From: Anaerolineae bacterium
GTDB lineage: Bacteria; Chloroflexota; Anaerolineae; CG2-30-64-16
Assembly: GCA_034434235.1 (NCBI GenBank)
Contig: DAOTZV010000192.1
Span: 5,037 to 69,036, forward strand
DNA length: 64,000 nucleotides
Direction of reading: 5' to 3'
Positions 20,307-56,779 of this stretch are shown piece after piece. Under the pieces are notes generated by a model. That model was not told the origin of the DNA and made no database searches. It saw only the letters and a list, made by a program, of their open reading frames with translations. Both the position numbers and the translations under genes were made by a program. Within the stretch, counting starts at the first letter, position 1, and the number at the start of each line of letters is the position of its first letter.

Positions 20307-20329
20307 GGATTGGGGATAAGGAGCTTGCG

Positions 20330-21229: not shown

Positions 21230-21246
21230 ATAAGTGGAGGGACGGT

Positions 21247-22476: not shown

Positions 22477-22592
22477 AACGTGAAACGCAAAAACGTAAAA
22501 CGTAAAAACGTAAAGCGTAAAACATCGTGCGTCATAGATCAAAGGCTAAGCAAAACATAATGACGTTTCACGTTTCGCGTTTGACGCTTTTC
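22474..22592. repeat. Heptamer repeat tracts (AAACGTA and inverted TTTCACG)
   Basis: Two oppositely oriented tracts after the stop codon. Confidence 0.75.
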
Positions 22593-22620
22593 ACACAACA
22601 CCCAAAGAGAGGATCTACCC

Positions 22621-29427: not shown

Positions 29428-30549
29428 ATGCCCATCACTCCCATCCGGCCGAAATGGCCCGGCACCATGACCGACCGCGAGCGCTTCGTCCGCCAGATGC
29501 ATTATGCGCCCGTGGACCGCTGCTTCAACATGGAATTCGGCTATTGGAACGAAAACTTCACTCAGTGGCCCCTCTTCTACGAGAACGGCATCACCAACAA
29601 CGCCGAGGCCGACATCTTCTTCAACTTCGACCGCATCGTCACGGTCGGCGGCTGCATCTGGATGCATCCCACCTTCGAGAACGTCGTCGTCGAGGAGCGC
29701 GAGACGACAAAGGTCATCATGAACGCGGACGGCCTGTTGGCCGAAGTGCCCAAGGACGGCCACGATACCATCCCCCACTACCTCAAGTCGAGCATCCAGA
29801 CGCCGGCCGACTGGCAGAGGGTGAAGGAAGAGCGCTTTCGCCGCGATGACCCCGCGCGCAAGGTGGACGTGCAACTGCTCAAGGAGCTCCACCCTTCCAG
29901 TCGCGACTATCCGCTTGGCGTCCACTGCGGCTCGATGATCGGCAAGATCCGCGATATGCTGACGTTCGAGGGATTGGCCTATGCCATCTACGACTACCCG
30001 GAGATGGTCGAGGACATGGTCGAGACGGCCTGCCTGCTCGTCGAGGACTTCCTGGATCAGGTGCTCGGCCATATTGACTTCGACTTCGCGTCGGGGTGGG
30101 AGGATATCTGCTATAAGGGCGGCCCGATCGTCTCGGTGAAGTTCTTCAAGAACGTGGTGATGCCGCGCTACAAGCGCATTCACGCCAAATTGAAGGCGGC
30201 CGGCATTGACCTGTGGTATACCGATTGCGACGGCGATGTGCGGCCGCTTTTGCCTTATTTCATGGAGGGCGGCATCAACTGCCTCTTCCCCTACGAGGTC
30301 AACAGTTGCGCGCACCCCGGCGAGCTGCTGAACAAATACGGGAAGGAGCTGCGCATCATGGGCGGCTTCGACAAGTTGCAGCTCGGCGCCGGCCGTGCAG
30401 CCATCAAGGCCTACATGGAAACCCTGGTTCCGCTGGTCGAACGGGGCGGCTACATCCCCTTCTGCGACCACCGTTGCCCGCCCAACGTGGACCCGGACGA
30501 TTATCTGTACTATCTGGATCTCAAGGAACAGATGTTCGGGATGAAGTAG
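29428..30549 (+). CDS. Uroporphyrinogen decarboxylase/MtaA-CmuA-fold protein
   Basis: GWEDICY, YTDCDGD, GGFDK and GGYIPFCDHRCPPNV; no HemE-specific N-terminal RQAGR motif. Confidence 0.85.
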   Translation: MPITPIRPKWPGTMTDRERFVRQMHYAPVDRCFNMEFGYWNENFTQWPLFYENGITNNAEADIFFNFDRIVTVGGCIWMHPTFENVVVEERETTKVIMNADGLLAEVPKDGHDTIPHYLKSSIQTPADWQRVKEERFRRDDPARKVDVQLLKELHPSSRDYPLGVHCGSMIGKIRDMLTFEGLAYAIYDYPEMVEDMVETACLLVEDFLDQVLGHIDFDFASGWEDICYKGGPIVSVKFFKNVVMPRYKRIHAKLKAAGIDLWYTDCDGDVRPLLPYFMEGGINCLFPYEVNSCAHPGELLNKYGKELRIMGGFDKLQLGAGRAAIKAYMETLVPLVERGGYIPFCDHRCPPNVDPDDYLYYLDLKEQMFGMK

Positions 30550-32068: not shown

Positions 32069-32512
32069 CTACAGACGGGAGACGAGGGCCGCCGCACGGC
32101 CGGCGCGGCGCAGCAGGACGACCAGCGGCGGAGGCGCGTCGCGGCGATAGGCCACGGCCGCGCGCAGCACGTCGAGCGCCACCGCGAAGTCGGCCGGCGC
32201 GGCGGCCGCGAAGATCCCCGCATCCTCGTACAAAACCAGGTGGCCGGCCGCGGCCGGCGCCCACGAGAGATCGCGCAGGCAGTCGGCCAGGGCGTCCCAG
32301 TTCCGGCCGAAATAGGCCGGAAATGCCAGCGCCCGGCTGCAGGCCTCCAGGAAGGCCGCCTTCGAGCGGATCTGGCGGCCCTCCAGTCGGGCGAAGCGCC
32401 AGCCGCAGCGATCGGCGCGCGCCGCGATCTCGTTCGCGAGGATCGGCTGCGTCAGACGGTAGACGTCCGGCGCGATGCGGCCGGCCAGCAGATCGTCCAA
32501 TCTGTCCTTCAT
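32069..32512 (-). CDS. Barstar family ribonuclease inhibitor
   Basis: FPAYFGRNWDALADCLRDLSW; ATGA overlap with the RNase gene. Confidence 0.92.
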   Translation of the reverse strand: MKDRLDDLLAGRIAPDVYRLTQPILANEIAARADRCGWRFARLEGRQIRSKAAFLEACSRALAFPAYFGRNWDALADCLRDLSWAPAAAGHLVLYEDAGIFAAAAPADFAVALDVLRAAVAYRRDAPPPLVVLLRRAGRAAALVSRL

Positions 32513-33123
32513 GGGATCACCCGCCGAAAGCTGTTGTAGTGGTCATCGGTGTAATACAGTTCGCCCTGGTTGCCCCGCACTAACCGCCGCGCCCCGCGAT
32601 CGGCCGAGCCGGGCGTGACCACCGTGTATTCCCGGTAGTAGCCGGCCGGCTTGCGCGGCAGGCGTCCCTCGCGATTCTCGAACACCACCCCATCCTGGCG
32701 ATAGGGAAACGGCCCGCCGGCCGCGATCAGGCGGAGCGTGTCGTGCGCCTCGGCCGGCAACTGATCCAGCCGGATCGTTCGCATCGGGTCGCCGGGCAAC
32801 GGCGTGGCGATGAGCAGGCCGCCGGGGGCTGGGGATGGGGGGGTGGGGGCTGGGGGCTGGGGGCTGGGGGCAAGATGAGGCGTCGGTGTGAACGAGGTCG
32901 GCCGCGTCGCCGCGGGGGAGGCCGGGTGCGTCGGCGCGGGGGAAGCCGGGCGTGTCGGCGCGGGGGAGGCCGGACGCGTTGGCGCGGGGGAGGCCGGGTG
33001 CGTCGGCGCGGGGGAGGCCGGGCGCGTCAGCGCAAACACTGCCAGGCCGACGGCTACGATCAGGAGCGCCAGGACGGCAAGGGTGCGCAGGTTGCGCTGC
33101 ATCGGTGATCGTCGTTGCGCCAT
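32509..33123 (-). CDS. Guanyl-specific ribonuclease (N1/T1/Sa family) with signal/TM segment and Pro-rich linker
   Basis: GPFPYRQDGVVFENREGRLP, YYREYTV, RGARR and YYTDDHY; start at 33123 (TGATG overlap) or 33102. Confidence 0.92.
   Translation of the reverse strand: MAQRRSPMQRNLRTLAVLALLIVAVGLAVFALTRPASPAPTHPASPAPTRPASPAPTRPASPAPTHPASPAATRPTSFTPTPHLAPSPQPPAPTPPSPAPGGLLIATPLPGDPMRTIRLDQLPAEAHDTLRLIAAGGPFPYRQDGVVFENREGRLPRKPAGYYREYTVVTPGSADRGARRLVRGNQGELYYTDDHYNSFRRVIP
32826..33021. repeat. In-frame repeats in the RNase linker: heptamer tract plus five 24-bp units (PASPAPT[H/R])
   Basis: Direct translation and DNA periodicity. Confidence 0.85.
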
Positions 33124-34550
33124 CAGACTTTGGCTCCTTCCGCCAGTTGCCGCCGCGTCCAGCCGTTCAGGATCGGATCGCGCGTCTCCTCCAGCCACGC
33201 GAGCATGCGCCGGCGCAAGCGGGCCAGCTCGGCCGCGGCGGCCGGGTCGGTCGCCCGGTTGACGATCTCGACCGGATCGGTCGCCAGGTCATAAAGTTCG
33301 TCTTCGGCGGTCAGGTTCCAGACGTACTTCCAGCGCCGATCGCGCACCATCCGCTGGCTGTAGAGGCCGAACTGATTGCCGAAGTAGGTGCAGAAGATGT
33401 CTTCCCGGCCATTGGCCTCTTCCCCGCGGGCCGGCGGCAACAGGCTCTTGCCGACGAAGGTGGCCGGCGGGGGCGCGCCGGCCGCATCGCAAAAAGTGGC
33501 CGCCAGATCAATGCCCGCCGAGACGAACGCGTCGCAGGTCCGGCCCGCGGGGAGGCCGGCCGGCCAGCGCATGATCAGCGGGACGCGCGCCACGTCGTCG
33601 TACATGACGTAGTGCTTGTCGGCCATGCCATGCGCGCCGCACAGGTCGCCGTGATCGGCCGTGTAGATCACCAGCGTGTTCTCCGCCAGTCCCAACGCGT
33701 CCAGCGCGGCCAGGATGCGGCCGATCTGAGCATCAATCAGCGAGATCTCGCCCAGGTAGCGCGCCGCGATCGGCGCCCATTGCTCCCACGTCCACCCCTC
33801 GATGCCCCAGCTCCGCAATTGCTGGCGCTGGATGTACGGCTTGCCGATCAGCGGATCGCCGAAGCTGGGCCAGGGCGGGACGGCGGCCGGATCGTACATG
33901 GAGGCATACGGCTCGGGCACGATGTTCGGCAGGTGCGGCTCGTCGGTGTCCCAGCGGAGGAAGAAGGGCCGATCCCCTTGGGCCGCCCGCTCCAGGAGGC
34001 GGATCAGCTCGCTCGCGCCCCATCCCAGCCGCGATTGCTCCGGCGTGATGGCCCCATCCGGTTCGCCCCAATAGCCGTTCGTGCGCGGGACCGGCGGCAA
34101 GCCCTGCGCCTGCCGCCACGCGCGATAAGCGCTGTTCGGCACGTAGTCGTGGAAGCCGAATTGCGTGGGGTCGCGCTCCTGATCCACCTGCCACTTGCCC
34201 ACGTACCCCAAATAGTAGGGGCGGAAGCCTTCCGCCCCAGGGCGGAGGCCCTCCGCCCCTGCGCGGCCGGCCAACACTTCGCTCCACATCGGCAGGCCGG
34301 GGCGCAGCGCGGCGGTCGGCTCCAGGTTTTCGTTGCAGATCACGCCGTGCCGCGTGGGCCACACGCCGGTCATCAGCGAGGCGCGCGCCGGCCGGCACAC
34401 CGGGCTGGCGCAGAACGCATGGCTGAACGTCACGCCCTCGCGGATCAGGCGATCCAGGTTGGGCGTGCGGATCAGCGGGTGGCCGTGGCCGGCGATGCAG
34501 TCGTAGCGGTGTTGATCGGCCTGGATGAACAGGATGTTCGGTGCGGGCAT
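33123..34550 (-). CDS. Formylglycine-dependent sulfatase (S1)
   Basis: PNILFIQADQ, CRPAR (CxPxR), GKW, YTADHG, DELYDL..DP. Confidence 0.93.
   Translation of the reverse strand: MPAPNILFIQADQHRYDCIAGHGHPLIRTPNLDRLIREGVTFSHAFCASPVCRPARASLMTGVWPTRHGVICNENLEPTAALRPGLPMWSEVLAGRAGAEGLRPGAEGFRPYYLGYVGKWQVDQERDPTQFGFHDYVPNSAYRAWRQAQGLPPVPRTNGYWGEPDGAITPEQSRLGWGASELIRLLERAAQGDRPFFLRWDTDEPHLPNIVPEPYASMYDPAAVPPWPSFGDPLIGKPYIQRQQLRSWGIEGWTWEQWAPIAARYLGEISLIDAQIGRILAALDALGLAENTLVIYTADHGDLCGAHGMADKHYVMYDDVARVPLIMRWPAGLPAGRTCDAFVSAGIDLAATFCDAAGAPPPATFVGKSLLPPARGEEANGREDIFCTYFGNQFGLYSQRMVRDRRWKYVWNLTAEDELYDLATDPVEIVNRATDPAAAAELARLRRRMLAWLEETRDPILNGWTRRQLAEGAKV
34215..34262. repeat. REP-like tandem palindrome in frame inside the sulfatase
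   Basis: GTAG-GGGCGGAAG-C-CTTCCGCCCC plus a degenerate second copy; encodes GAEGLRP-GAEGFRP. Confidence 0.75.
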
Positions 34551-34591
34551 GTTGGACGTTGGCGATCTCCCTTGGCAAGTTCGGCGTGCGC

Positions 34592-36205
34592 CTACGGCCG
34601 TTCCAGGACGAGCACCCAATCCTGGAACACCGGCGGCTTGGGCACGACGTAGTCGGCGCCGCCGACGACCTCGCCCAGGGCGTGTTCGGCGCCGTTCGTG
34701 GGGTCGAAGTAGAATGCCCGGTAGCGCGCGTCCGATTCCAGCCCTTTGACGGCCATCTGGCCGCGCCAGGCGATCCACGACGCCTCGGCCGGGATGTAGA
34801 TGATGCGCACCCGGCCGGGGATGCCGGCCGCGTAGGGCAACATGCGATTCCCGGCGGTTTGATGCGGCTCGATCCACTCGTGATGCGTCTCGAACTGCGC
34901 CCACGGGTAGCGTTCGAGCAGCCGCTTCGCCAGGCCGAGCTGGGCCGAGCCGGGGAGCACCGCGGCCTCGTCCCACGGCCGGTTGCCCCAAGAGGAGCCG
35001 TGCGGCGAAGGGCCGAAAGGCATCTCCCTTGTGTTCACCTGCCAGATGCCGTTGGCGCCGTAGGTGTGGCCCATCGCGCCGGAAAGCATGGCCGTCCAGA
35101 AGAGGAAGCGTTGCATTTCCTCCCGGCTCGATTCCATGATCCCTTCGTAGTTGGCCTCGCCGATCAGCACGGGCATGGTCGGCGCCGCGGCGAGCGACTC
35201 TTCGAGGAACTGCACCGAGTTGGCCAGGGTCGGATAGCCGCTGTGGCCGGTCTGGAGCATCTCGAAGTCGAGCACGCCGGGATCGTCCACCTGCTGGCGG
35301 CCGTAGCGGGTCGGGTGGATGGTGATCGGGTGCTTGTTGGGGTCGAGCGCGCGGATGTAGCGGATGAGGTCGGACCATTGCGCCTGGCGGCCGCGCTTCC
35401 AGGCGTCGCTGTCGCGCTGAGGATCCTTCAGCAGGTAGTAGTTCATCATCGCCTCGCCGGCCGCGCACCAGACGACCGGATAGGCGCTGTAGCGGGCGAT
35501 CAGGTAGCGCCAGTGCTTCTTCAGCACTTCCGGTCCGGCGATGTCCATGAAGTAGCCCCACTCGCCCACGATGCACGGCACGATGCCCGCGCGCACCAGA
35601 TGGGCGATGCGCAGGTCGGCCATGTCGAAGTAGGCGGGGTTGACGGCGGAGAAATCCCTGGCCCACGGGAAGCCGGCCTCGTTTGCGCCGCGCTCATCGT
35701 ACCAGTCCATGTCGGGATAGAGCCCGGCCACGATCTGGACGACGGTGAAGCCCTTGGCCACCCGGTCGGCCGCGAGCGCCTGGAAATCGGCGGGCCAGCT
35801 CAGCCGTTTGGTGAGGCCCATCCACCAGGTGTCGGCGAGCCAGAAGAAGGGCGTGCCGTCGGCATGTTCCAGGTGGCGGCGATCGGCGGCCACGCGCAGG
35901 AAGCCGCGGCGCAGCAGCGGATTGAGGCCGTCGTAGCGCGCGACCAGGATCGTGCCGGTGCGGTCGTGGAGGTCGGCGTTGCCGGTGTCCGAGCAGACGG
36001 TGCGGAAGGTGTAGCGGCCGATCTGCCGCGGGGCAAAGCGCACGCGCCACGTCTGATCGCCGGCCCAAAACGCGGGGACGACGACCTCCTGGCCGTCCCC
36101 ATCGCTGATGAGGACGTTCAGCTCGACGTCGTTGAAGGGATCCAGGTAGGTCTTGCCGGAGGTGTAACTCCATTCGATGAGACAATTGCGTCGAGTGTAG
36201 AACAT
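34592..36205 (-). CDS. DUF5060/DUF4038 (apiosidase-like) putative glycoside hydrolase
   Basis: DGTPFFWLADTWW, KGFTVVQ, YLIARY, LQTGH, EANYEG and GHTYGANGIW; C-terminal DWVLVL. Confidence 0.88.
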   Translation of the reverse strand: MFYTRRNCLIEWSYTSGKTYLDPFNDVELNVLISDGDGQEVVVPAFWAGDQTWRVRFAPRQIGRYTFRTVCSDTGNADLHDRTGTILVARYDGLNPLLRRGFLRVAADRRHLEHADGTPFFWLADTWWMGLTKRLSWPADFQALAADRVAKGFTVVQIVAGLYPDMDWYDERGANEAGFPWARDFSAVNPAYFDMADLRIAHLVRAGIVPCIVGEWGYFMDIAGPEVLKKHWRYLIARYSAYPVVWCAAGEAMMNYYLLKDPQRDSDAWKRGRQAQWSDLIRYIRALDPNKHPITIHPTRYGRQQVDDPGVLDFEMLQTGHSGYPTLANSVQFLEESLAAAPTMPVLIGEANYEGIMESSREEMQRFLFWTAMLSGAMGHTYGANGIWQVNTREMPFGPSPHGSSWGNRPWDEAAVLPGSAQLGLAKRLLERYPWAQFETHHEWIEPHQTAGNRMLPYAAGIPGRVRIIYIPAEASWIAWRGQMAVKGLESDARYRAFYFDPTNGAEHALGEVVGGADYVVPKPPVFQDWVLVLERP

Positions 36206-36221
36206 CGGGCCTCCTCAGATT

Positions 36222-36278
36222 GCAGGGCCGAATTTATTCGGCCCTGCCCGTTGCGGGGCCGAATGAATTCGGCCCTAC
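36222..36278. repeat. REP doublet (REPIN-like) overlapping the LacI 3' end
   Basis: GCAGGGCCGAATTTATTCGGCCC ... GGGCCGAATGAATTCGGCCCTAC; same family as 30546-30683. Confidence 0.88.
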
Positions 36279-37289
36279 GCCCGTCGAGCTCCTGATCACC
36301 AGCTCGGTCGGGATGGCGACGCGTTGCGGCGGCCGGTCGGGGTCGGCCAGGCGGGCGAAGAGCAGCGCGGCGGCCTGGCGGCCGATCTCTTCGCCGTGGG
36401 CGCGCACGGTGGTGAGGGGCGGCGTCAGGTGCTCGGCGAAGTCCATGTCGTCGAAGCCGGCCACCGAGAGGTCGGCCGGCACGGCAAGCCCCCGCTCGTA
36501 GGCGGCCTGGAGCGCGCCCATGGCCATCAGGTCGTTGACGCCCAGGATGGCCGTGGGCCGGGGCGAGAGGTCGAGCAGGCGCCGGGCCGCGCACGCGCCG
36601 TCGTCGGGATCGGGGCCGCACTGGGCGATGAGCGCCTTTTCGTAGGGCAGGCCGGCCGCCCGCAGCGCGCGGCGATACGCGAAGAGGCGATCGGCGCCCA
36701 GGCCGGCGCGCGCCACGCCGTGGATGAACCCGATGCGGGTATGGCCCAGCTTCATCAGGTGGTCCATCAGCTCGCAGGTGCCCGGGCCGTAGTCTTGCGT
36801 GACCAGGTCCTTGCCCGGCAGTTCGTGGCCGAAGGTCACGATCGGGCTTCCCTGGAGGCGCAGCGCGTCCAGCTCATCGGCCAGGCGGCCCGGGTAGGTG
36901 AGGATCAGGATCAGGCCGTCGAAGCGCTGCTCGGCCAGGGCGCGCAGCGAGCGGCGCTCGCGTTCGGCCTCCTGGCCCGAGATGCTGAGGACGAGCTGGC
37001 AGCCGTGCTCGCGCGCCACCGCCTCGACCCCGCGCACGATGGCCCACCAATGGGGGTTGCGGCCGTCCGGGATGAGGAGGGCGATCGTGTCGGTGCGGCC
37101 CGAACGCAGACTGCGCGCGGCCGCGTGGGGCTGATAGCCCAACTGCGCGATGGCGGCCAGCACGCGGCGCCGCGTCTCCTCGGTGATCTGGACGCTGCCG
37201 CCGGTATGGCCGGTGACCACGTTGGAAACCGTGGCGCGGGACACGCCCGCCAGGCGGGCCACATCGCTCTGCGTAACGCGTTTCGCCAC
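36234..37289 (-). CDS. LacI family transcriptional regulator
   Basis: VTQSDVARLAGVSRATVS HTH, LGYQP..AARSL, GFDD and PPLTTV. Confidence 0.95.
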   Translation of the reverse strand: MAKRVTQSDVARLAGVSRATVSNVVTGHTGGSVQITEETRRRVLAAIAQLGYQPHAAARSLRSGRTDTIALLIPDGRNPHWWAIVRGVEAVAREHGCQLVLSISGQEAERERRSLRALAEQRFDGLILILTYPGRLADELDALRLQGSPIVTFGHELPGKDLVTQDYGPGTCELMDHLMKLGHTRIGFIHGVARAGLGADRLFAYRRALRAAGLPYEKALIAQCGPDPDDGACAARRLLDLSPRPTAILGVNDLMAMGALQAAYERGLAVPADLSVAGFDDMDFAEHLTPPLTTVRAHGEEIGRQAAALLFARLADPDRPPQRVAIPTELVIRSSTGVGPNSFGPATGRAE

Positions 37290-37322
37290 CGGAGCTCCTG
37301 GGAATTAGGGTAACACGTACAG

Positions 37323-37336
37323 GCTTACACGTGTCA
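37323..37336. promoter_or_regulatory. Candidate LacI operator 1
   Basis: GCTTACACGTGTCA, exact reverse complement of 37439-37452. Confidence 0.75.
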
Positions 37337-37342
37337 TGGGCG

Positions 37343-37371
37343 ATTATCGCCCAAACGAGGGCGTTTGTCAA
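37343..37371 (-). promoter_or_regulatory. Sigma70 promoter of the lacI-glycosidase-sulfatase arm
   Basis: TTGACA, 17 bp, GATAAT. Confidence 0.75.
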
Positions 37372-37403
37372 AAGACCCCGCCCGGCAATTCTCGTCTCGC
37401 GGG

Positions 37404-37432
37404 TTGACAGGCGCTGGCCTTCCCGCTATAAT
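37404..37432 (+). promoter_or_regulatory. Consensus sigma70 promoter of the sulfotransferase arm
   Basis: TTGACA, 17 bp, TATAAT. Confidence 0.88.
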
Positions 37433-37438
37433 ATGCCT

Positions 37439-37452
37439 TGACACGTGTAAGC
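37439..37452. promoter_or_regulatory. Candidate LacI operator 2
   Basis: TGACACGTGTAAGC at the predicted transcription start. Confidence 0.75.
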
Positions 37453-37485
37453 TTGCACGTGCCAAACCCCGCGAAAGGTGTGAAC

Positions 37486-38259
37486 ATGTCCCTCATCACC
37501 GTGATCGGCCGCGGGCATTCCGGCACGCGGGCGATCTCTCATACGCTTTCGGCCAGCGGCGTCTTCATGGGCGCGCCGCAAAACGTATCGGGCGACCTCT
37601 TGCCACCCCAGGCCATGTACGACGCGTGTCGGGTCTTTGCGCGCTACGTGCGCTGGTGCGGCGGGCTGGAATGGTGCTGGGATGAAGTGTTCGCCATGGA
37701 CATCCCGGGCGAGTTCACCCAATTGATCGAGCAGTATCTGGTCTCGGTGCGAGAGAGCCCGGCCGAACACAAGGGCTGGAAGATCCCGGAGACCACCCTG
37801 GTCTTCCCCTGGATCGCCCGCATGTTCCCCGAGGCAAAGTACATCTTTTGGATCCGCAACCCGCGCGATTGCATCCTCGGCCGACACCTGACCGACGACC
37901 TGCGCGACTTCGGGATCGAGTATCCTCCGACCGACGATCTTCGCCTGCGGCGGGCGATCTCCTGGATCTACCAGTACAAGCTGGTGAAGGCCACGCCCAA
38001 GCCGGCGCACTGGATCGAGGTGCGCTTCGAGGATTTCGTGTTGCGGCAGGACGAGACCCTGGCCCGGCTGGAGGATTTCCTCGGGATCAAGCTGGCGAAG
38101 ATTCCGGTGCGGCCCGAGGCGGTGGATCGCTGGAAGCAGGACGACGGCGTGAACTACTTCGACTTCTTCGCGCCGGCCATGCAGGAATACAACTATCCGA
38201 TACCCGCTGCCCAGACGGGCGATGGGGAACCCACAGAAATCCAGGAGGTGACAGCATGA
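37486..38259 (+). CDS. Sulfotransferase family protein
   Basis: 5'-PSB-like GRGHSGTR, GWKIP, IRNPRD and VRFED. Confidence 0.85.
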   Translation: MSLITVIGRGHSGTRAISHTLSASGVFMGAPQNVSGDLLPPQAMYDACRVFARYVRWCGGLEWCWDEVFAMDIPGEFTQLIEQYLVSVRESPAEHKGWKIPETTLVFPWIARMFPEAKYIFWIRNPRDCILGRHLTDDLRDFGIEYPPTDDLRLRRAISWIYQYKLVKATPKPAHWIEVRFEDFVLRQDETLARLEDFLGIKLAKIPVRPEAVDRWKQDDGVNYFDFFAPAMQEYNYPIPAAQTGDGEPTEIQEVTA

Positions 38260-39476
38260 TCAAATCCGATGTGGCCGGACAGGTGGGCATGTCGGCCGAG
38301 CGCCTGGCGCGCATCAGCCGGATGTTGCAGCGGTACGTGGCGCAGCAGACGGTGGCCGGCATCGTGGCGACGGTGGCGCGACGCGGACAGACGGTCTATC
38401 TGGAGAAGTTCGGCTATGCCGATCTCGAAGCGGCCGCGCCGATGGAGTTCGATACGATCTTCCGGATCGCCTCCATGACCAAGCCGATCACCGCCGTCGC
38501 GGCCATGATGCTCTACGAAGAAGGCTGGTTCGACCTGAACACCTTCGTGCACGAGTTCATTCCCGCATTCAAGGACCTCAAGGTCTTCGTGCGCCAGACG
38601 AAGGCCGGCCCCGAGCTGGAGCCGCTCGCCCGGCCGATCACCTTCCGCCATCTGTTCACCCACACCGCCGGGCTGAGCTACGGCTTCGATCCGCAGGACC
38701 CGGTGGATCGCCTCTACCACGAGGCGGGCGCCACGCTGTTGCACTTCTACGCGCCCGGCGCGCGCTTCACGAACAAAGACGTGGTGGACGCGCTGACGCG
38801 GCTGCCGCTGGCGTTCCAGCCCGGCGCCCACTGGCGCTACAGCCTCTCGATTGACGTGCTCGGCTATCTGGTAGAGCTCATCTCGGGGAAGCCGCTCGAC
38901 GTCTTCCTGCGCGAGCGCATCTTCGAGCCGCTCGGCATGGCCGACACCGATTTCTACGTGCCGCCGGCCAGGTTGTCGCGGCTGGCGAAGATCTATTGCA
39001 CCGATCCGAGCGGGACGGGCCTGGCCCGCGTCGATCTGCCCGTGCCGACCGAGCCGCCGGCCTTCCTGTCGGGCGGCGGCGGGCTGTTCTCCACGATCGG
39101 CGACTATAGCCGCTTCGCGCAGATGCTGGTCAACGGCGGCGAGCTGAACGGCGTCCGGCTGCTCAGTCCGCGCACGGTGGCGCTGATGGAGATGAACCAG
39201 GCGCCGGCCGAGGCGTTGCCCTACGAGCAGAGCGCCGGCAGCTTGAAGAACGCCGGCTACGGCTACGGACTGGGCATGCGCGTCCTCACCGACGTGGCGG
39301 CTTCGGGCCGCGCCGGTTCGGTCGGCGAGTTCGGCTGGGACGGCGCGTTCGCCACCTACTTCTGGGTGGATCGCAAGGAGGCGCTCTACGGCCTGCTGAT
39401 GACCCAGCACCAGGCCTGGTCCTTCCCGCTCCACCAGCAATTCAAGATCCTGACCTATCAGGCGTTGACCGACTGA
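38256..39476 (+). CDS. Serine hydrolase, beta-lactamase/esterase family
   Basis: SMTK (SxxK), LFTHTAG, WRYS and SGGGGL. Confidence 0.92.
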   Translation: MIKSDVAGQVGMSAERLARISRMLQRYVAQQTVAGIVATVARRGQTVYLEKFGYADLEAAAPMEFDTIFRIASMTKPITAVAAMMLYEEGWFDLNTFVHEFIPAFKDLKVFVRQTKAGPELEPLARPITFRHLFTHTAGLSYGFDPQDPVDRLYHEAGATLLHFYAPGARFTNKDVVDALTRLPLAFQPGAHWRYSLSIDVLGYLVELISGKPLDVFLRERIFEPLGMADTDFYVPPARLSRLAKIYCTDPSGTGLARVDLPVPTEPPAFLSGGGGLFSTIGDYSRFAQMLVNGGELNGVRLLSPRTVALMEMNQAPAEALPYEQSAGSLKNAGYGYGLGMRVLTDVAASGRAGSVGEFGWDGAFATYFWVDRKEALYGLLMTQHQAWSFPLHQQFKILTYQALTD

Positions 39477-39491
39477 CTGAAAGCTCACCGT

Positions 39492-39525
39492 ACGTGCCAG
39501 GCACCCTCCCAGGTGCCTGGCACGT
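39492..39525. repeat. Dispersed palindrome (GTGCCAGGCAC family), copy 2
   Basis: 14-bp stem ACGTGCCAGGCACC/GGTGCCTGGCACGT. Confidence 0.8.
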
Positions 39526-39571
39526 GAAGCACCGGTCATTTTCAGTATCCCACCCCGAAAGAGGCGCTAAC

Positions 39572-40564
39572 ATGCTTCGAGTCTGTGTTATCGGCATGGG
39601 CCCGATCGGCAATCGCCATGCCATGATCTACAAAGAGGATCCCCTGGCCGAGCTGGTCGGCGTGTGCGACATCCGCAAGGACCGCGCCGACGCGGCTGCT
39701 GCCCGCCACGGCGTGCCGGCGTTCTACGACGCGCAGGAGATGCTGGACGCGCTCAAGCCCGACGTGTGCAGCATCACCACCGGCGGCTATGAGTACGGCA
39801 GCGATCACTATCTGCCGACCATGCAGGCGTTCGAGGCCGGCTGTCACGTGTTGGGCGAGAAGCCGATCTCCAACGACATCGCGGAGGCCGAGCAGATGGT
39901 GGCCAAGGCGCGCGAGAAGGGCCTTTGCTACGGCATCAACCTCAACCATCGTTTCACCGAGGCGGCCTATATCGCGAAGCGATGGCAGAACGAGGGCCGG
40001 CTGGGCCATCTGCTCTTCGTCAACATGAGCATGTGGATCAAGAATCCGGCCGAAAGCTCGCCCTATTACATGATCAAGGCACTCAATCCCCATTCGGTGG
40101 ACGTGATGCGCCACTTCTGCGGCGACATCGAAGCCGTGCAATGCTTCGCGCAGAAGGCGCCCGGCCGCCAGATCTGGTCTACGGCGCACTTCAGCATGAA
40201 GTTCAAGAACGGCTGCGTCGGCGGGCTGACCGCTTCGTACGACATCGAGCGAGGCCATCCGATGGAGCGGTGCGAGGTGGCGGGCACGAAGGGCCGCTTC
40301 GTCCTGGAAGACATGTGGCGCGAGGTGACCCTCTATCCGGCCGGCGACCTGGAGAAGCGGGTCTACACCAATCCGGTCTTCGGGGGCCATCGCGATTTCG
40401 AGGATACCTTCCGCAACCGCATCCACAAGTTCCTGCAACAGATCGCCGACGGCGCGAAGCCGGAGGAGATAGACGGTTCGGGCGCCGACGGCCTGGCCGC
40501 CCAGAAGGTCCTCCAGGCCGCCATCGAGTCGCTGGAGACGGGGAAGATCGTGTACGTGAAGTAA
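39572..40564 (+). CDS. Gfo/Idh/MocA oxidoreductase
   Basis: IGMGPIG, HVLGEKP and HSVD. Confidence 0.92.
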   Translation: MLRVCVIGMGPIGNRHAMIYKEDPLAELVGVCDIRKDRADAAAARHGVPAFYDAQEMLDALKPDVCSITTGGYEYGSDHYLPTMQAFEAGCHVLGEKPISNDIAEAEQMVAKAREKGLCYGINLNHRFTEAAYIAKRWQNEGRLGHLLFVNMSMWIKNPAESSPYYMIKALNPHSVDVMRHFCGDIEAVQCFAQKAPGRQIWSTAHFSMKFKNGCVGGLTASYDIERGHPMERCEVAGTKGRFVLEDMWREVTLYPAGDLEKRVYTNPVFGGHRDFEDTFRNRIHKFLQQIADGAKPEEIDGSGADGLAAQKVLQAAIESLETGKIVYVK

Positions 40565-40593
40565 AACTTGCGTTCTAAAGAAAGGATACTCTC

Positions 40594-41697
40594 ATGGCTC
40601 TCAAAGTCGGTGTCGTCGGCATGCGCGGGATCGGCAACCAGCATGCCGCCTGTCACAAGAGCGATCCCCTTGCCGAGCTGGTCGCGGTATGCGACGTGGT
40701 CAAAGAGCGGGCCGATGCGGCCGCGGCGAAGTACGGCGTGAGGGCATATTACAGCCTGACCGACATGCTGCGCAACGAGGAACTCGACATCGTGGATGTG
40801 ACCACGGGCGGGTTCGAGAACGGGAGCTGGCACTTCGAGCCGGTGATGGAGGCGCTGGAGGCCGGCAAGCACGTGCTCGTCGAGAAGCCGATCTCCAACA
40901 ACATCGTCGAGGCGCGGCAGATGGTGGCGAAGGCGGCCGAGAAGAAGCTCTATCTGGGCTGCAACCTGAACCACTACTTCACCCCGACCGCCGAGCGCGC
41001 CATGAAGTACATGAAGGAGGGCGGGATCGGCGAGCTGGTCTATTGCCTGCACAAGGTCGGCTTCAACGGCGGCGAGGAGGGCTATCGCGGCCCCGGCCCC
41101 GGCACGCGCTTGCCCGGCTGGCCCTACGCCCACCTGAAGGCGTTCCTGGCGCATCCCTTCGCGTGCATGCGCTATTTCTGCGGCGACATCACCCACATCC
41201 AGGCGTTCGTCGAGCGGCCCGGCCATCGGCGCCGCGCCAACGACCTCATGCTGTCGGTCGTCAGCGTGAACATGCGCTTCGCCAACGGGTGCGTCGGCAG
41301 CCTGATCAGCCAGCGCGGGGACGCGCCGTGGGGCCTGGGCGGCTGGTGGAGCCTGGAGGTGGCGGGCACGAAGGGCGCCTTCTGCATCGAGAACTGCATC
41401 GAGAAGCTGTATTACTGGAAAGCGGGCGGCAATCCGATGGGCACCTTGCCGCCGACCGAGGTGTACGACAGCGGCATCAAGGACTTCAACCAGACCTTCC
41501 CGCGGCGCATCCATGCCTTCCTGGAGGATGTGACCAACAAGGTCTTCCACGAAGACCTGCGCGCCTCGGGCCGCGATGCGCTGGCCACGCTGGAATACAC
41601 CTGGGCCGTGATCGAGTCGTACGAGAGCGGCGGGGCCATGGTGCGGCCGCATCCGTTGCCGCCGCTCCACGGCGATCCGAAGAAGCTGCTCGATTGA
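40594..41697 (+). CDS. Gfo/Idh/MocA oxidoreductase
   Basis: VGMRGIG and HVLVEKP. Confidence 0.92.
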   Translation: MALKVGVVGMRGIGNQHAACHKSDPLAELVAVCDVVKERADAAAAKYGVRAYYSLTDMLRNEELDIVDVTTGGFENGSWHFEPVMEALEAGKHVLVEKPISNNIVEARQMVAKAAEKKLYLGCNLNHYFTPTAERAMKYMKEGGIGELVYCLHKVGFNGGEEGYRGPGPGTRLPGWPYAHLKAFLAHPFACMRYFCGDITHIQAFVERPGHRRRANDLMLSVVSVNMRFANGCVGSLISQRGDAPWGLGGWWSLEVAGTKGAFCIENCIEKLYYWKAGGNPMGTLPPTEVYDSGIKDFNQTFPRRIHAFLEDVTNKVFHEDLRASGRDALATLEYTWAVIESYESGGAMVRPHPLPPLHGDPKKLLD

Positions 41698-41708
41698 GGG
41701 AGCACACC

Positions 41709-42506
41709 ATGAAACTCGGAGCCAATTCGGTCCTTTTCGGCGGCCACAGCCTGGAGACCGCGTTCAAGTATCTCGCGATGGCCGGCTACGACGGCATCGA
41801 GCTCTCGGCGATTGACGGCATGAGCGAGCACCTGGTCCTGGATCGCTGGCAGGAGATCGCGCCCGAGATCAAGCGGCTCTCCCGCGAATACGGGCTGGAG
41901 CTGCTGGCGATGGAGCAGCCTTCGCAGGATCCGGCCAAGATGGAGAAGGCGTTTCAGGCCGCGGTCGAGATCGGCATCCCGATCGTCAACTGCGGGCCGG
42001 GCGGCAAGACCGGCGATGAGGCCAGCTTCCAGCAGGCGGTGGATTCGATCGGCCGGCTGTGTCAGATGGCCGAGCGCTACGGCGTCACCCTCTGCGTGAA
42101 GGCGCACGTCGGCGCGGCGATCTACAACACGCCGACCACCTTGCGCCTGATGGAGGCGATCAGCTCGCCGGCGTTCGGGGTGGACATGGATCCGTCGCAC
42201 ATCTACCGGGCGGGCGAAGACCCCGTGGAGGCGATCAAGGCGGTGGTGCACCGCGTGAAGCACGTGCACATCCGCGATTGCAAGGGCCGGCAGCAAAGCC
42301 CCGGCAAGCCGGAGATGCAGGCGAACGGCCGCGGCGATATCAACCTGCTCGGCTACATTCGGGCGCTGCACGAGGCCGGCTACACCGGGCCGCTCGACCT
42401 GGAGGTGATCGGAGCGAAGTCCTACGACGTGATCCAGTGCGCGATCATCGCGGCCGAAGCGCGCGGGCACATGCAGGCGTGTCTCCAGGCGTGCGGCGCG
42501 CGGTAG
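41709..42506 (+). CDS. Sugar phosphate isomerase/epimerase-type TIM barrel (AP-endonuclease-2 family)
   Basis: GYDGIEL, DMDPSH, HVHIRD and DLEV. Confidence 0.9.
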   Translation: MKLGANSVLFGGHSLETAFKYLAMAGYDGIELSAIDGMSEHLVLDRWQEIAPEIKRLSREYGLELLAMEQPSQDPAKMEKAFQAAVEIGIPIVNCGPGGKTGDEASFQQAVDSIGRLCQMAERYGVTLCVKAHVGAAIYNTPTTLRLMEAISSPAFGVDMDPSHIYRAGEDPVEAIKAVVHRVKHVHIRDCKGRQQSPGKPEMQANGRGDINLLGYIRALHEAGYTGPLDLEVIGAKSYDVIQCAIIAAEARGHMQACLQACGAR

Positions 42507-42512
42507 GTTTGT

Positions 42513-45266
42513 CTACGGCAGCAGTCCCAGGTTTCGCCCCAGGGTCGTGATGGTCAATTCGGCGCCCGCGAACAGCACGCCCAGGGCCGAGAGGCCGACG
42601 AAGAAGAGCGCCATGCCGGCCACGGGCAGGATCACCGTGCGCCGGCCGCTCAGGCCATGCACCTCGACGCCGGCCATCCAGAGGGCCACGAACGATGCCG
42701 CGGACGCGCTGAACCGGGCCAGCGGCGCCAGGAACGGAATGAGCGCCAGCAGGTTGAGCAGATGGGCGGTCGCGGCGAAGCCAAGCCCGCGCAGGGTGCG
42801 GGTGTAGCTCGCCTGGCCGCCCAACGACCGGCCCGCGGCCGTGATCACCTCGACCATGATCAGCCAGACGCCGATCTGTTCGAGCCAGGTGGCCGTCTGC
42901 CAGCCGGTGGGGCTGAAGAGGACGGCCAGCGCCAGGCCCCCGAGCGCCAGCACGAGCGCCGGGCCGGTCATCCGCGGGTCGTCGGCCGCTTCGGCAAACG
43001 CCGCGCGGTCGAGGATCAGGCTGCGCAGCGCGAGCGCCAGCCAGCGGCTGGGCCGGCGCAACACCCCGTCCGCCAGGTAGGCCAGACGCCAGACGTGGTC
43101 GTCGGCCCCGCCCGCGAGATGGGAGGGCGCCCCCCTGGCCCCCCAACCCTGGGGGGAACGGGGGGCCGCTTTTTCAGCCCCCCAGACTTGGGGGGAACGG
43201 GGGGCATCGGCCGGAGCCGCGAGCAAGCCGCGACGGCCGTTCAGGATGGGGTACAGGTCGGCCGCGTTGCGCGTTGGGCCGACGACCATGTCGGCCGGAT
43301 GGAACAGGAACGCGTCGGTCTGTTCGCCGCCCAGGCCGCCGTGGCTTCCGATCAGCTCTTCGAAGGCCGCCACCGTGCCGTCCGGGTAGAGCGTGCTGAT
43401 CACCATCAGATCGCCGGAGTGGGGAAAGTCCATCACCCGTTTGATCTGCCATGCTCGCAAGGCCACGTCGCCGTACGGCCTGAGCGGGTCTTCGCCGACC
43501 ACCTCGCCGGTGCGCAGGTTGTGTTGCCCCCTTTTGCCGAGGACGATCGGGGTGTCGGCATCCAGGTAGCCGGCCACCAGGCCGATCCCCTCGTGCGCCA
43601 CCAGCGCGCTGACCATGCCCGGATAGACGGCATCCAGTTCCGGCAGGGTCACGCGGCGCGGGTGAAAGTCGAAGTAAACCTGGGCCAGGTTGCCGCTGCC
43701 GACCACCACCACCTGGGCGGCCGGCGGCGGGCCGATCTCCTCTTCGCGGCGCTGGACCGCCTTTTGCGCGGCCTTTTGGCTGCTCTTGACCACCGCCGCA
43801 CCCATCCGGCCGGTCATGCCCTGCTCCTGCACGTTCGCCAGCTCGGCCGACATGGCCGAGACCGCGATGATGCCGTTGTCGCCGCCGATGCGCTGTTGGA
43901 CCGTCGTGCCGGCCGGCAACTGGCGCTCGATGAATTCCTTGAGCGTCAGGCCGTAGCGTTGTTTGAAAGTGGCGCCGAACGACTGGCCGTGGTCCGACAG
44001 GACGATCAGCTCATACGGCCGCGGCGCTTTTTGCCGCATGAAGCGCACGATGCGTCGGAAGACGCGGTCGTATTTCCTGAGCACGCGCAGCGCATCCTTT
44101 GACCAGGGCCCGGAATGATGCGCCACCTCGTCGTAGCCGGGCCAGGTCACATAGATGACGGGCGCGCCGCGCAGGATGTCGAGCGCGGCCAGGTGCGCGC
44201 CGACGTCGCGCAGCAGGATGTTGGCCGTGGCCCGAATGAGCGGATAGAGCCGGTGGAGCCGATCCACGCGCGGCCGGACATTGCGGATGCAGGCTTTGGC
44301 GTATTGAAAAAGCTCCAGCAGCATGTCCCCGATCATCAGCACCATCGTCCGCGTCAGGAAGTAGGGGTTGGCCGCCAGCAGATAGATGTCTTGCGCGCGG
44401 CGGCTTTTCTGCTCCCAACTGCCGGAGTTCAGATCGGCCAGGGTGAGGATGGACTTCTCCGCGTCGCCGTTGAGCATGTTGTTGATGCTCGATCCCCCGC
44501 GCAGCAGGCCGTGGCCGCGGGCGAAACGGGCGTTGATGGCCGCCGCATCTTCGCCCGAGACATACAGCTTGCGCTGTTCCTTGTCGTACCAGCGGAACGC
44601 GGGAATGTCGTAGTTGTCGCCGAACATGATCCCCGCCTGGCACGCCGAGGTCTGCGAGGGCAATCCGCATTCCACCCGCGAGAGCACGTAGCCCTCTTCC
44701 TGCATCAGCTTGCCGAGGGTCGGCAAGAGGCCGGCCTCCAGCGCGTATTTCATGTGCCAGTAGCTCAGGCCGTCTATCTCCAGCAACACCAGTCCGCGGC
44801 CGGGTTCGGCCGCGCCGCGGAAGGTCTGGAGCCGGGCGATCCGTTCGATCAGTCCTTCGTAGAACGATCCCTCGTCGTCCAGCGTGATGATCCCCGTGAG
44901 CAGGGTGTTGACGGCCGCCAGTACCAGGCCACCGGCCGCGGCCGCCAGGAAGCCGTCCACCTGGAAGAACGGTAGCAAGCGCGAGGTGATCAGCAGGGTC
45001 AGCGCGTTCGCCAGCAGGCCGAAGATGAAGGTGGCCAGGAAGCCGAACGGCAGGGCCAGCAACAGAATCAGCGGCCGGATCAGCAGGTTGACGATGCCCA
45101 ACATGAACGCCGCGGCCGCGGCCACCACCAGCCGATCATCGAGATCGGCCGCCAGCAGATGCACGCCCGGCACGATCAGCGCCGCGCTGAGCAGCGAAAG
45201 GCCGTCCACGACCCAGACGACGCCGAAACGCAACAGCCATCGTGCGACGTATCGGATTGCGTCCAT
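42513..45266 (-). CDS. Fusion of 4-TM holin-like (DUF360) domain, alkaline-phosphatase-superfamily domain and Yip1-like TM domain
   Basis: GIVNLLIRP..LLLALPF; EIDGL, SQTSACQAG, DEVAH, SDHG and GSHGGLGG; hydrophobic C-terminus. Confidence 0.85.
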   Translation of the reverse strand: MDAIRYVARWLLRFGVVWVVDGLSLLSAALIVPGVHLLAADLDDRLVVAAAAAFMLGIVNLLIRPLILLLALPFGFLATFIFGLLANALTLLITSRLLPFFQVDGFLAAAAGGLVLAAVNTLLTGIITLDDEGSFYEGLIERIARLQTFRGAAEPGRGLVLLEIDGLSYWHMKYALEAGLLPTLGKLMQEEGYVLSRVECGLPSQTSACQAGIMFGDNYDIPAFRWYDKEQRKLYVSGEDAAAINARFARGHGLLRGGSSINNMLNGDAEKSILTLADLNSGSWEQKSRRAQDIYLLAANPYFLTRTMVLMIGDMLLELFQYAKACIRNVRPRVDRLHRLYPLIRATANILLRDVGAHLAALDILRGAPVIYVTWPGYDEVAHHSGPWSKDALRVLRKYDRVFRRIVRFMRQKAPRPYELIVLSDHGQSFGATFKQRYGLTLKEFIERQLPAGTTVQQRIGGDNGIIAVSAMSAELANVQEQGMTGRMGAAVVKSSQKAAQKAVQRREEEIGPPPAAQVVVVGSGNLAQVYFDFHPRRVTLPELDAVYPGMVSALVAHEGIGLVAGYLDADTPIVLGKRGQHNLRTGEVVGEDPLRPYGDVALRAWQIKRVMDFPHSGDLMVISTLYPDGTVAAFEELIGSHGGLGGEQTDAFLFHPADMVVGPTRNAADLYPILNGRRGLLAAPADAPRSPQVWGAEKAAPRSPQGWGARGAPSHLAGGADDHVWRLAYLADGVLRRPSRWLALALRSLILDRAAFAEAADDPRMTGPALVLALGGLALAVLFSPTGWQTATWLEQIGVWLIMVEVITAAGRSLGGQASYTRTLRGLGFAATAHLLNLLALIPFLAPLARFSASAASFVALWMAGVEVHGLSGRRTVILPVAGMALFFVGLSALGVLFAGAELTITTLGRNLGLLP
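43138..43205. repeat. Two 29-bp G/C-run elements, 39-bp period, in frame in an interdomain linker
   Basis: GCCCCCCAACCCTGGGGGGAACGGGGGGC and GCCCCCCAGACTTGGGGGGAACGGGGGGC; encode PRSPQ[V/G]WGA. Confidence 0.8.
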
Positions 45267-45439
45267 TGAAGCCTCGTTGTGATATGGATGGTGTGCGCCA
45301 GTCATGGGGCCTGCACCAGGGCCGAAGATCTCCGGCCTATTATACCCTACCCTCAGACCAGCCAAAACGCAAGAGTGCAAACATCGCGCCCCGCGCGTTT
45401 CTGCGGGTTGGGGTATAATAAGCATCAGGAGTGCAATGC

Positions 45440-51968: not shown

Positions 51969-52043
51969 AAACATCTCCGGGTTGACAGGTTTCTGTATCG
52001 GTGAACCGCCTCACATGATAGCACAAATTGCCCAAAAAGCCAC

Positions 52044-53172: not shown

Positions 53173-53198
53173 TCTCTGTGCTTGAGGCGATCAACGCG

Positions 53199-54230
<1,032 letters not shown>

Positions 54231-54372
54231 CACGAAAGGAGGTGATGACGGGAGGAGGGAGTCGCTGTGCACGGCACGCATGGAGCACCCGCCATGCGTC
54301 GAAGATCAGGTTCAACTCGGGTTGGCCATCGGGTGAACCAACCGTTCTACACCAAGCAGAGGAGATGTCAGA

Positions 54373-56589: not shown

Positions 56590-56612
56590 CAAGAGTTACG
56601 CAGTAGAAGCTC

Positions 56613-56752
56613 GCAGCCGGTCTGTGACCGGCGTCGTCGGCTTGCAAGCGTCGTCTTGGGCGGCCCGACGGGGGTCGCAGACCCCCTGCGAGCAAGAAGA
56701 AAGGACCTCGTAGCTACGCGCCCGGCGTCTTCGAAAGTGCCGGGCGCGTGAG
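56613..56752. repeat. Intercistronic hairpin/REP cluster after the binding-protein gene
   Basis: GCCGGTC-TGT-GACCGGC, GGGGTC-GCA-GACCCC and CGCGCCCGGC...GCCGGGCGCG. Confidence 0.7.
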
Positions 56753-56779
56753 CTCGGGAAGCAGGGCTCAGGAGATGGC

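Follow-up and report, generated by a model that had tools for sequence, protein, structure and literature searches.

In a 64,000-nucleotide stretch of a contig from an Anaerolineae bacterium of the Chloroflexota (DAOTZV010000192.1, positions 5,037 to 69,036 of the forward strand), which we call the window, a sulfotransferase (ST) is the first gene of an operon that also encodes an esterase, two Gfo/Idh/MocA oxidoreductases (Gfo1 and Gfo2) and a xylose-isomerase-like TIM barrel. Judged by sequence and gene order, this operon (ST-esterase-Gfo1-Gfo2-TIM), the right arm of a divergent cluster, is the local version of a widespread cassette, ST-Gfo-Gfo-TIM, which is the conserved unit across about ten phyla, with protein identities of 60-95%. 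Full-text searches found no literature on such a cassette which, so far as they show, is undescribed. We propose, with a probability of about one in three (0.35), that its core handles a sulfated keto-sugar, and that the ST runs forwards as a feeder of unsulfated or de-esterified sugar.

A sulfotransferase cassette shared by distant phyla

Relatives of the ST (37486-38259, + strand, 257 amino acids) were scanned in one genome per species, which gave at least 135 of them, and the best 80, 61-94% identical to the protein of the window, were used for neighbourhood counts. The carriers belong to Chloroflexota, Armatimonadota, Lentisphaerota, Verrucomicrobiota, Planctomycetota, Spirochaetia, Latescibacterota, Deinococcota, Poribacteria and Alphaproteobacteria (Devosia). 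In about 59 of the 80 loci the ST stands among orthologues of the Gfo and TIM proteins of the window (60-98% identity), often with overlapping stop and start codons. Orthologues of Gfo1 (39572-40564, +, 330 amino acids), 70-98% identical, come after the ST in most loci, and those of Gfo2 (40594-41697, +, 367 amino acids) are 61-98% identical. The TIM barrel (41709-42506, +), which closes the right operon of the window, always counts 265 amino acids, is 78-96% identical across phyla and is represented by 5847 database clusters.

Clustering all open reading frames (ORFs) of the ST loci brought out the recurrent partners: a sulfatase-like protein that we call SULFc (48 of 80 loci), the TIM barrel (46 of 80), Gfo genes of three or four types, and regulators of the AraC or LacI families. 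The usual transporter is an Opp-type ATP-binding cassette (ABC) importer, composed of a SBP_bac_5 binding protein, two permeases and two ATPases; the closest solved relatives of this binding protein bind chitin oligosaccharides and alpha-galactosides. In the minimal form of the system, present in Deinococcota, Devosia and Bauldia, the importer is divergent from SULFc-Gfo-ST-TIM. There seems to be no additional universal partner: among 115 non-cassette neighbour proteins compared with Pfam, no family occurred in more than three, and WD40 matches from Poribacteria filled the list. The recurrence of the ST-Gfo-Gfo-TIM block in dozens of species, together with the promoters and palindromes described below, indicates that the arrangement in the window is far from chance.

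Elsewhere in the window, a second LacI locus (52180-63482, +) encodes an Opp-type ABC importer and a GH4 glycosidase (62079-63482), the latter 46% identical to an LplD-like GH4 protein that follows the ST in some Anaerolineae. By its gene content, this second locus could supply the transporter that is absent from the ST cluster.

Locus architecture and regulation

The window has about 66% G+C and its raw ORF list is crowded with spurious frames; genes were mapped by third-position GC and frame plots plus translations. The cluster spans 33123-42506 and comprises eight genes in two divergent operons, with a 196-bp intergenic region between the arms. An earlier reading, made by a model from the letters of the window alone (hereafter the sequence-only reading), had assigned all eight genes to their families, and Pfam agreed in every case; the left boundary of its stretch, 34592-42506, left the sulfatase gene outside. 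The left operon begins with a LacI-family repressor (36234-37289, -, 351 amino acids; Pfam LacI helix-turn-helix (HTH) plus Peripla_BP_1/3), continues with a GH140-like glycoside hydrolase (34592-36205, -, 537 amino acids; DUF5060 plus Apiosidase-like/DUF4038, E 7e-67) and ends with a Cys-type S1 sulfatase (33123-34550, -, 475 amino acids; Sulfatase plus SGSH_C, E 2e-35). In the right operon, the ST is followed by a family VIII carboxylesterase (38256-39476, +, 406 amino acids; Beta-lactamase family, E 5e-69) with an SMTK motif, and then by Gfo1, Gfo2 and the TIM barrel. Inspection of the cluster proteins by eye revealed no N-terminal signal peptide, and a cytoplasmic location of the enzymes is therefore probable.

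Two sigma70-type promoters lie back to back between the arms. The leftward one, TTGACA-17-GATAAT (37343-37371, -), matches the consensus at 11 of 12 positions and points at the LacI gene; the rightward one, TTGACA-17-TATAAT (37404-37432, +), matches at 12 of 12 and points at the ST. One copy of a 20-bp palindrome sits immediately downstream of the -10 box of each: O1, CACGTGTAAGCTTGCACGTG, at 37442-37461, between the rightward -10 box and the ST start codon, and O2, CACGTGTAAGCCTGTACGTG on the - strand, at 37314-37333, immediately 3' of the leftward -10 box. A search that tolerated up to three mismatches gave these two sites only in the 64-kb window, where none is expected by chance. The motif core also lies just 5' of the ST operon in the three closest relatives (L001, L002 and L003), preceding the first gene of the operon in L003. 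Within the arms, the distances between genes range from a 4-base overlap to 95 bases, and no internal terminator is predicted in either of them.

The repressor combines the PF00356 HTH with PF13377 and PF00532 effector domains, the architecture of the LacI/GalR family, and the palindromes have the position of putative operators at the promoters that it would regulate. Since the palindrome is found nowhere else in the window, co-regulation by LacI is well supported. We infer that the repressor binds both sites, and the two arms very probably form one autoregulated LacI regulon. The co-regulation assumed by the sequence-only reading is thus upheld by the shared operator 3' of both promoters, the tight or overlapping genes and the lack of a predicted internal terminator; the catabolic, inducible setting that it had proposed also agrees with the sugar importers and the LacI or AraC regulators found around the cassette in its relatives. 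LacI homologues with 43-58% identity adjoin the cassette in L032, L056, L059, L068 and L102, which come from several phyla, and the repressor of the window therefore belongs with the cassette. The idea that both arms make up a single conserved unit did not hold: the LacI-GH140-like-sulfatase arm is lineage-specific, and what is conserved is the right arm.

The sulfotransferase

The ST matches PF13469 (Sulfotransfer_3) with an E-value of 1.6e-15. No NCBIfam model hits it at all, and its sequence matches in the PDB, the CurM ST and TPST2, are marginal (E about 0.3). An AlphaFold model built on 34 sequences (pLDDT 86, pTM 0.84) was compared with the PDB through Foldseek, and all 50 of the matches listed were sulfotransferases, many of them with 3'-phosphoadenosine 5'-phosphate (PAP) bound. 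The top ones were TPST1/2 (TM score about 0.6, E 3e-7), the CurM ST and the heparan sulfate 3-O-sulfotransferase. The Pfam domain, the model and its structural matches all place the protein in the sulfotransferase fold.

Three elements of the sequence are invariant: the blocks 8-GRGHSGTR-15 and 97-GWKIPETT-104, and R124. In a HMMER alignment, K99 corresponds to K158 of TPST2 and R124 to R183, and the position of the Ser of the 3'-phosphate-binding motif is taken by Gly132 or Arg133. His11 presumably stands at the place of the catalytic Lys/Arg in the 5'-phosphosulfate loop, a position that we assigned by eye against the motifs of known enzymes. The protein appears to share with TPST1/2, its best structural match, the x-S-G-T pattern of the 5'-phosphosulfate-binding loop, the equivalent of K158 and the Arg of the 3'-phosphate-binding motif; it differs in overall identity (about 17-21%), in having His11 where TPST2 has Arg78, and in being much smaller, probably cytoplasmic and encoded among sugar genes, not peptide-related ones. 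The clade is large: at E ≤ 1e-5 it counts 3688 clusters of 90% identity, and at E ≤ 1e-30 it counts 162 representatives of 50% identity. From its motifs and predicted structure, we read the ST as a functional sulfotransferase of a distinct clade, of the type that uses 3'-phosphoadenosine 5'-phosphosulfate (PAPS).

Two other assignments were discarded. A kinase does not agree with a loop that reads G-T-R, as is typical for sulfotransferases, and not GK[ST] as in kinases, nor with Foldseek matches that are all sulfotransferases among the 50 listed. A desulfonation of the sulfoquinovose type was set aside on two grounds: no gene for a sulfoquinovosidase was seen, and the PAPS-type site looks intact.

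As the sequence-only reading had remarked, such an enzyme is unusual in a catabolic operon, and the ST does sit within an operon of Gfo and TIM genes with importers and regulators, not among genes of glycolipid biosynthesis. In 13 of the 80 loci, no cassette gene is nearby, and some relatives are fused to glycosyltransferases. Some Anaerolineae have the gene of a GH4 glycosidase after the ST, and GH4 enzymes likewise use NAD-dependent oxidation-elimination; in Poribacteria the genes that come after the ST encode a Gfo protein and a HAD protein. Metagenomic proteins contain fusions of ST domains, with about 60% identity to the ST of the window, with GT61 (P0121, 61% identical), GT4 (P0166), a methyltransferase (P0174) and also tetratricopeptide repeats (TPR), on contigs too short for context. 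As for the substrate, genes for GH78-like, GH106-like, rhaM, LplD-like GH4 and CE15 proteins near the ST are suggestive of rhamnose or a uronate, and too sparse to name it.

The dehydrogenases and the TIM barrel

Gfo1 and Gfo2 carry the Pfam domains PF01408, PF22725 and PF02894 and the motifs GMGPIG and GMRGIG, and EKPIS, as expected from Gfo/Idh/MocA oxidoreductases. Among solved proteins, both come closest to the C-glycoside 3-oxidoreductase DgpA, though only with an E-value of 1e-15. None of the cluster proteins reaches an NCBIfam equivalog cut-off. The top NCBIfam matches of the Gfo proteins and the TIM barrel are IolG, with 88-107 bits against a cut-off of 355, and IolE, with 46 bits against 290; the models of BT_2158/2159 and of levoglucosan dehydrogenase give 23-72 bits against cut-offs of 650-750. 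In the annotation of the window, none of iolD, iolB, iolC and iolJ was seen in the cluster. The 3-keto-glycoside or inositol-type routes that the sequence-only reading had suggested are hence analogies and not memberships, all scores being far under the cut-offs.

The 3-keto-glycoside routes of Bacteroides (BT2156-2160), of levoglucosan (LgdA/B/C), of the 3-keto-glucoside lyase/hydratase of Agrobacterium and of C-glycosides (DgpA/B/C) likewise combine Gfo/Idh/MocA enzymes with a xylose-isomerase-like TIM barrel in a sugar-inducible operon. However, their TIM families have a metal-ligand Glu where that of the cassette has a Lys, and none of them is known with a sulfotransferase or a sulfatase-like partner. 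Inositol and rhizopine catabolism (IolG/IolE; MocA/MocB/MocC) shares with the cassette the dehydrogenase, the TIM dehydratase or isomerase, the binding-protein importer and the repressor; the differences are scores 3 to 6 times under the equivalog cut-offs, and the ST and sulfatase genes of the cassette.

The TIM barrel belongs to Pfam AP_endonuc_2, and its model has a pLDDT of 88. Foldseek placed first the L-xylulose-5-phosphate 3-epimerase UlaE (TM score 0.81), then ketose 3-epimerases, IolE and AsbF, with the 2-hydroxy-3-keto-glucal hydratase AtHYD lower in the list. In a profile alignment with UlaE of E. coli, D161, H187 and E232 correspond to the metal ligands D185, H211 and E251. Where UlaE has Glu155, its first ligand and its catalytic base, the protein has an invariant Lys131, which is followed by a short insert with an invariant His133, and the E-D-H-E metal and catalytic tetrad of UlaE and the ketose 3-epimerases is thus incomplete. 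Because of this replacement, the protein is not a canonical epimerase. Lys131 could bind an anionic group or act in an elimination, and sulfated intermediates would at least agree with the nearest fold, that of UlaE, whose substrate is an anionic keto-sugar. There are also six invariant cysteines, among them the C-terminal pair C258-x3-C262.

A sulfatase-like partner without formylglycine

The usual partner of the cassette, SULFc, is a sulfatase-like protein different from the Cys-type sulfatase of the window, and its gene was not found elsewhere in the 64 kb. It matches Pfam Sulfatase (E 2e-52; the example is L022:6519-7940, with 47 other loci). The C/S-x-P-x-R motif of formylglycine-dependent S1 sulfatases occurs in none of the 48 sequences, and the position of the nucleophile is taken by an invariant Thr64 (IPTTxxYxxMxTG). 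Near the N-terminus, the metal motif GIDSLRADH is similar to the one of nucleotide pyrophosphatases (NPP), the sulfate-binding GKWH motif is missing, and the D-H-G-E and D-H-H blocks are invariant. These features make it an enzyme of the alkaline phosphatase superfamily with a Thr nucleophile, which may be a new kind of sulfatase, or a phosphatase, phosphodiesterase or mutase. A Mn-dependent arylsulfatase was considered as a precedent for a sulfatase without formylglycine and set aside, since the published enzyme uses Cys/formylglycine.

Lineage-specific accessories

The sulfatase of the window carries the canonical formylglycine motif of the S1 family, CRPARASLMTG, and its best PDB match is an exo-2S-iota-carrageenan sulfatase (E 1e-46). 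Homologues of this Cys type (47-62% identity) adjoin the cassette in about 11 other loci. The GH140-like protein, with its Apiosidase-like domain, matches the PDB entries 3kzs/5msy (E 1e-21) and the apiosidase 8t9w (E 1e-20), and its gene lies next to the cassette in one other locus only (L048). The esterase aligns with solved family VIII esterases (E 6e-88 to 5e-79), has their S-x-x-K motif and is present only in the closest relatives (L001-L003). By their distribution, the three proteins are lineage-specific accessories. Formylglycine-type sulfatases and glycoside hydrolases under a sugar-responsive regulator are also the content of the sulfatase polysaccharide utilization loci of Bacteroidota and of Planctomycetota, Verrucomicrobiota and Chlamydiota (PVC bacteria). 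The cluster of the window differs from them in that its enzymes appear cytoplasmic, in the lack of SusC/D and in the presence of an ST, and the conserved partner of the cassette is formylglycine-less.

The start codon of the esterase overlaps the stop codon of the ST (ATGA), and the comparison of L092, L003 and the window makes the ST-esterase pair look like a two-gene insert between SULFc and Gfo1. Separately, a CE15 glucuronoyl-esterase domain is fused to a 60%-identical ST domain in the metagenomic protein P0122. The ST has thus been tied to an ester hydrolase on two independent occasions, in support of the ester link that the sequence-only reading had drawn.

An optional enzyme with a proposed forward direction

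A second scan was anchored on the TIM barrel, whose relatives occur in at least 565 species, and 57 loci had enough upstream sequence. The ST is present in 26 of these 57, and in L092, L100, L104, L105 and L116 the cassette is SULFc-Gfo-Gfo-TIM, without the ST and otherwise identical. These two observations make the ST an optional insert and not the chemical heart of the pathway. A gene of the sulfatase type, either SULFc or Cys-type, is kept in nearly all cassettes with an ST, with two exceptions. Moreover, of the 11 loci that carry the Cys-type sulfatase, 8 also have the ST; the two are associated and are not alternatives.

As to direction, the genes that come after the cassette in L081, and share its strand, are a URO-D-like gene, cysC, cysD and a fused cysN-cysC, and in the planctomycete L034 a cluster for sulfate transport and activation (cys) lies about 5 kb downstream of the cassette. 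By our estimate, roughly 0.3 such adjacencies would be expected by chance among the loci. The two cases are suggestive of PAPS consumption, not a proof of it. A similar neighbourhood is known from the rhizobial NodH with NodPQ, likewise a carbohydrate sulfotransferase beside its own cysD/cysN/cysC-type genes, as in L081. However, NodH is biosynthetic and serves the Nod factor, whereas the ST of the cassette has importers, dehydrogenases and sulfatase-type genes under LacI/AraC as neighbours and PAPS genes in two loci only.

The window has two URO-D-like genes of its own (29428-30549, +, and 50892-51974, -). The first is 32% identical to the URO-D-like gene of L081, which lies after the TIM barrel there and has a 57%-identical counterpart in the same place in L094. 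These genes may represent further accessory steps.

A route for sulfated sugars and its alternatives

In the pathway that we favour, the locus would serve the cytoplasmic breakdown of a small imported carbohydrate, sulfated and probably also esterified. The core, in which two or three Gfo dehydrogenases join the TIM barrel and, as a rule, a sulfatase-like protein, would act on the sulfate ester of a sugar or cyclitol. One Gfo enzyme would oxidise the sulfated sugar to a keto-sugar, which the TIM barrel would isomerise, epimerise or subject to elimination at the adjacent carbon; its invariant Lys, in place of the metal-ligand Glu, may hold an anionic group. The second Gfo enzyme would reduce the product, and a sulfatase-type enzyme, in the window the Cys-type sulfatase of the left arm, would remove the sulfate. 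The PAPS-consuming ST would be an optional feeder, as a kinase feeds a sugar-phosphate route, turning an unsulfated sugar into the sulfated intermediate that the core accepts. Such a sugar could arise, for example, when the co-translated esterase takes off an acyl group, or when a sulfate is removed from a different position. Lineage-specific pre-processing would be the task of the GH140-like hydrolase, the sulfatase and the esterase.

The role of a feeder rather than of a core step rests on the 26 of 57 loci with an ST, on the otherwise identical cassettes that lack it and on the sulfatase-type gene that is nearly always kept, and the two ties to an ester hydrolase agree with it. The recurrence of the Cys-type sulfatase beside the cassette argues for a sulfated substrate, and the cys genes of L081 and L034 for the forward direction. 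What is left of the sulfated and acylated glycoside pathway outlined by the sequence-only reading is a co-regulated, catabolic set of sulfate- and ester-related genes; the reverse action of the ST, the membership in a known route and the two arms as one conserved unit are not supported.

Several observations weigh against the sulfated keto-sugar route. The main uncertainty is SULFc, which may be a phosphatase, phosphodiesterase or mutase, and this would weaken the idea of sulfated intermediates. Only 2 of about 165 loci have PAPS genes alongside, and L002 and L161 carry an ST with no sulfatase-type gene nearby. The ST also occurs outside the cassette, beside GH4, alone, or fused to GT61 or GT4, and its acceptor could be more general. 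Finally, PAPS costs about three ATP equivalents per sulfation, which by our own reasoning is hard to justify in fermentative carrier lineages.

The nature of SULFc leads to one alternative, in which the cassette would handle a sugar or cyclitol, for example of the inositol type, that is phosphorylated or linked through a phosphodiester. SULFc would then be a Thr phosphatase or phosphodiesterase, as its invariant Thr and NPP-like DSLRADH motif allow, the Gfo and TIM proteins would work like IolG/IolE or MocA/MocC, and the ST would sulfate the product or the aglycone for detoxification or export, a side reaction that suits an optional gene. The best NCBIfam matches point the same way, and the layout resembles the rhizopine moc genes. 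We find this rather unlikely: the IolG/IolE scores stay far under their cut-offs, the companions iolD, iolB, iolC and iolJ were not seen in the cluster, and true Cys-type sulfatases recur beside the cassette. Moreover, an ST conserved to such an extreme degree points to a single specific acceptor and not to varied aglycones.

A rather unlikely possibility is that sulfation is the activation of a leaving group. The substrate would be unsulfated, the ST would sulfate one of its hydroxyls, Gfo would oxidise the neighbouring carbon and the TIM barrel would eliminate the sulfate, so that a deoxy-keto sugar results. The ST domains of CurM and OLS are a precedent for sulfate in this role, and CurM is among the best matches of the ST in both sequence and fold; these are polyketide synthase domains that act on substrates bound to acyl carrier protein, with about 14% identity to the ST of the window. 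The pairing of Gfo and TIM suits oxidation-elimination chemistry, the 2-hydroxy-3-keto-glucal hydratase appears among the fold matches of the TIM barrel, and PAPS genes lie near the cassette in L081 and L034. Such an obligatory activation fits less well, since no cassette could dispense with the ST, yet about half of them, identical in other respects, do without it. The near-constant sulfatase-type partner would also be left unexplained, and, in our own reasoning, a kinase would give an adequate leaving group at one third of the cost.

The sequence-only reading had suggested that the ST may run in reverse or act as a sulfohydrolase. In such a reverse or trans-sulfation, the ST would move sulfate from the sugar to bound PAP, as a formylglycine-independent desulfation or a salvage of PAPS. 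The apparently intact PAP(S)-binding motifs and the catabolic character of the rest of the cluster would permit it, and another desulfation route could help where SULFc has no formylglycine. However, to move the group from an alkyl sulfate onto PAP would cost roughly 10 kcal/mol (an estimate from general thermodynamics), and the enzyme would be expected to replace sulfatases, not to accompany true Cys-type ones as it does in 8 of 11 loci. With cys genes nearby in L081 and L034 that suggest the use of PAPS, nothing favours the reverse direction, and we hold it to be distinctly unlikely.

A biosynthetic ST, devoted to a sulfated glycan, glycolipid or exopolysaccharide and without pathway meaning in its operon, would account for the 60%-identical domains fused to GT61 and GT4 glycosyltransferases and TPR proteins, and for the 13 of 80 loci without cassette. 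It is very improbable in view of the insertion of the ST between cassette genes of many phyla, often with overlapping stop and start codons, of its place in the window as first gene behind a regulated promoter and operator, and of the lack of any glycosyltransferase, flippase or lipid gene beside it there. That the sulfate ester is an energy currency, with Gfo and TIM making an activated (enol or alpha-keto) sulfate as enolase makes phosphoenolpyruvate, a reversed ST charging PAP to PAPS, and the neighbouring adenosine 5'-phosphosulfate kinase and ATP sulfurylase, also reversed, yielding ATP, is extremely improbable; if true, the energy of the sulfate ester would be conserved at the substrate level.

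Sulfated sugars hold much carbon and sulfur as a large pool, and to our knowledge sulfate removal before catabolism is known in bacteria by sulfatases only. If the ST really works inside catabolic operons of about ten phyla, some bacteria would metabolise sugars as sulfate esters, with sulfate in the part usually played by phosphate; alternatively, sulfate would be used as a leaving group, and either would be a new pathway logic. A function would thereby be assigned to three very abundant families that have none so far: the ST clade, the 265-residue TIM barrel (about 80% identity between phyla) and SULFc. The locus also offers a defined operator and a repressor whose ligand should be the substrate or an intermediate of the pathway, and cultured carriers exist, among them Devosia geojensis BD-c194, Oligosphaera ethanolica DSM 24202 and relatives of Capsulimonas or Litorilinea.

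Neighbouring genes and other features of the window

On its left, the cluster is flanked by a barnase-like/barstar pair (32069-33198, -), in which the ribonuclease adjoins a barstar-type inhibitor gene and has a Pro-rich N-terminus with about five repeats of PASPAPT[HR]. On its right, a convergent gene encodes a 970-amino-acid membrane protein (42513-45425, -), an unusual fusion of three domains (phage-holin-4-like membrane, type I phosphodiesterase and Yip1), and is followed by a GIDA-family gene (PF01134). Farther away, a UDP-glucose/GDP-mannose dehydrogenase (13685-16426, -; 913 amino acids in total) is split by an intein with a LAGLIDADG homing-endonuclease domain. Finally, the genes of an NAD-dependent epimerase/dehydratase, a DHDPS-family aldolase and a mandelate-racemase-type dehydratase (19443-23940, +) make up a probable sugar-acid catabolic set, unconnected to the ST cluster.

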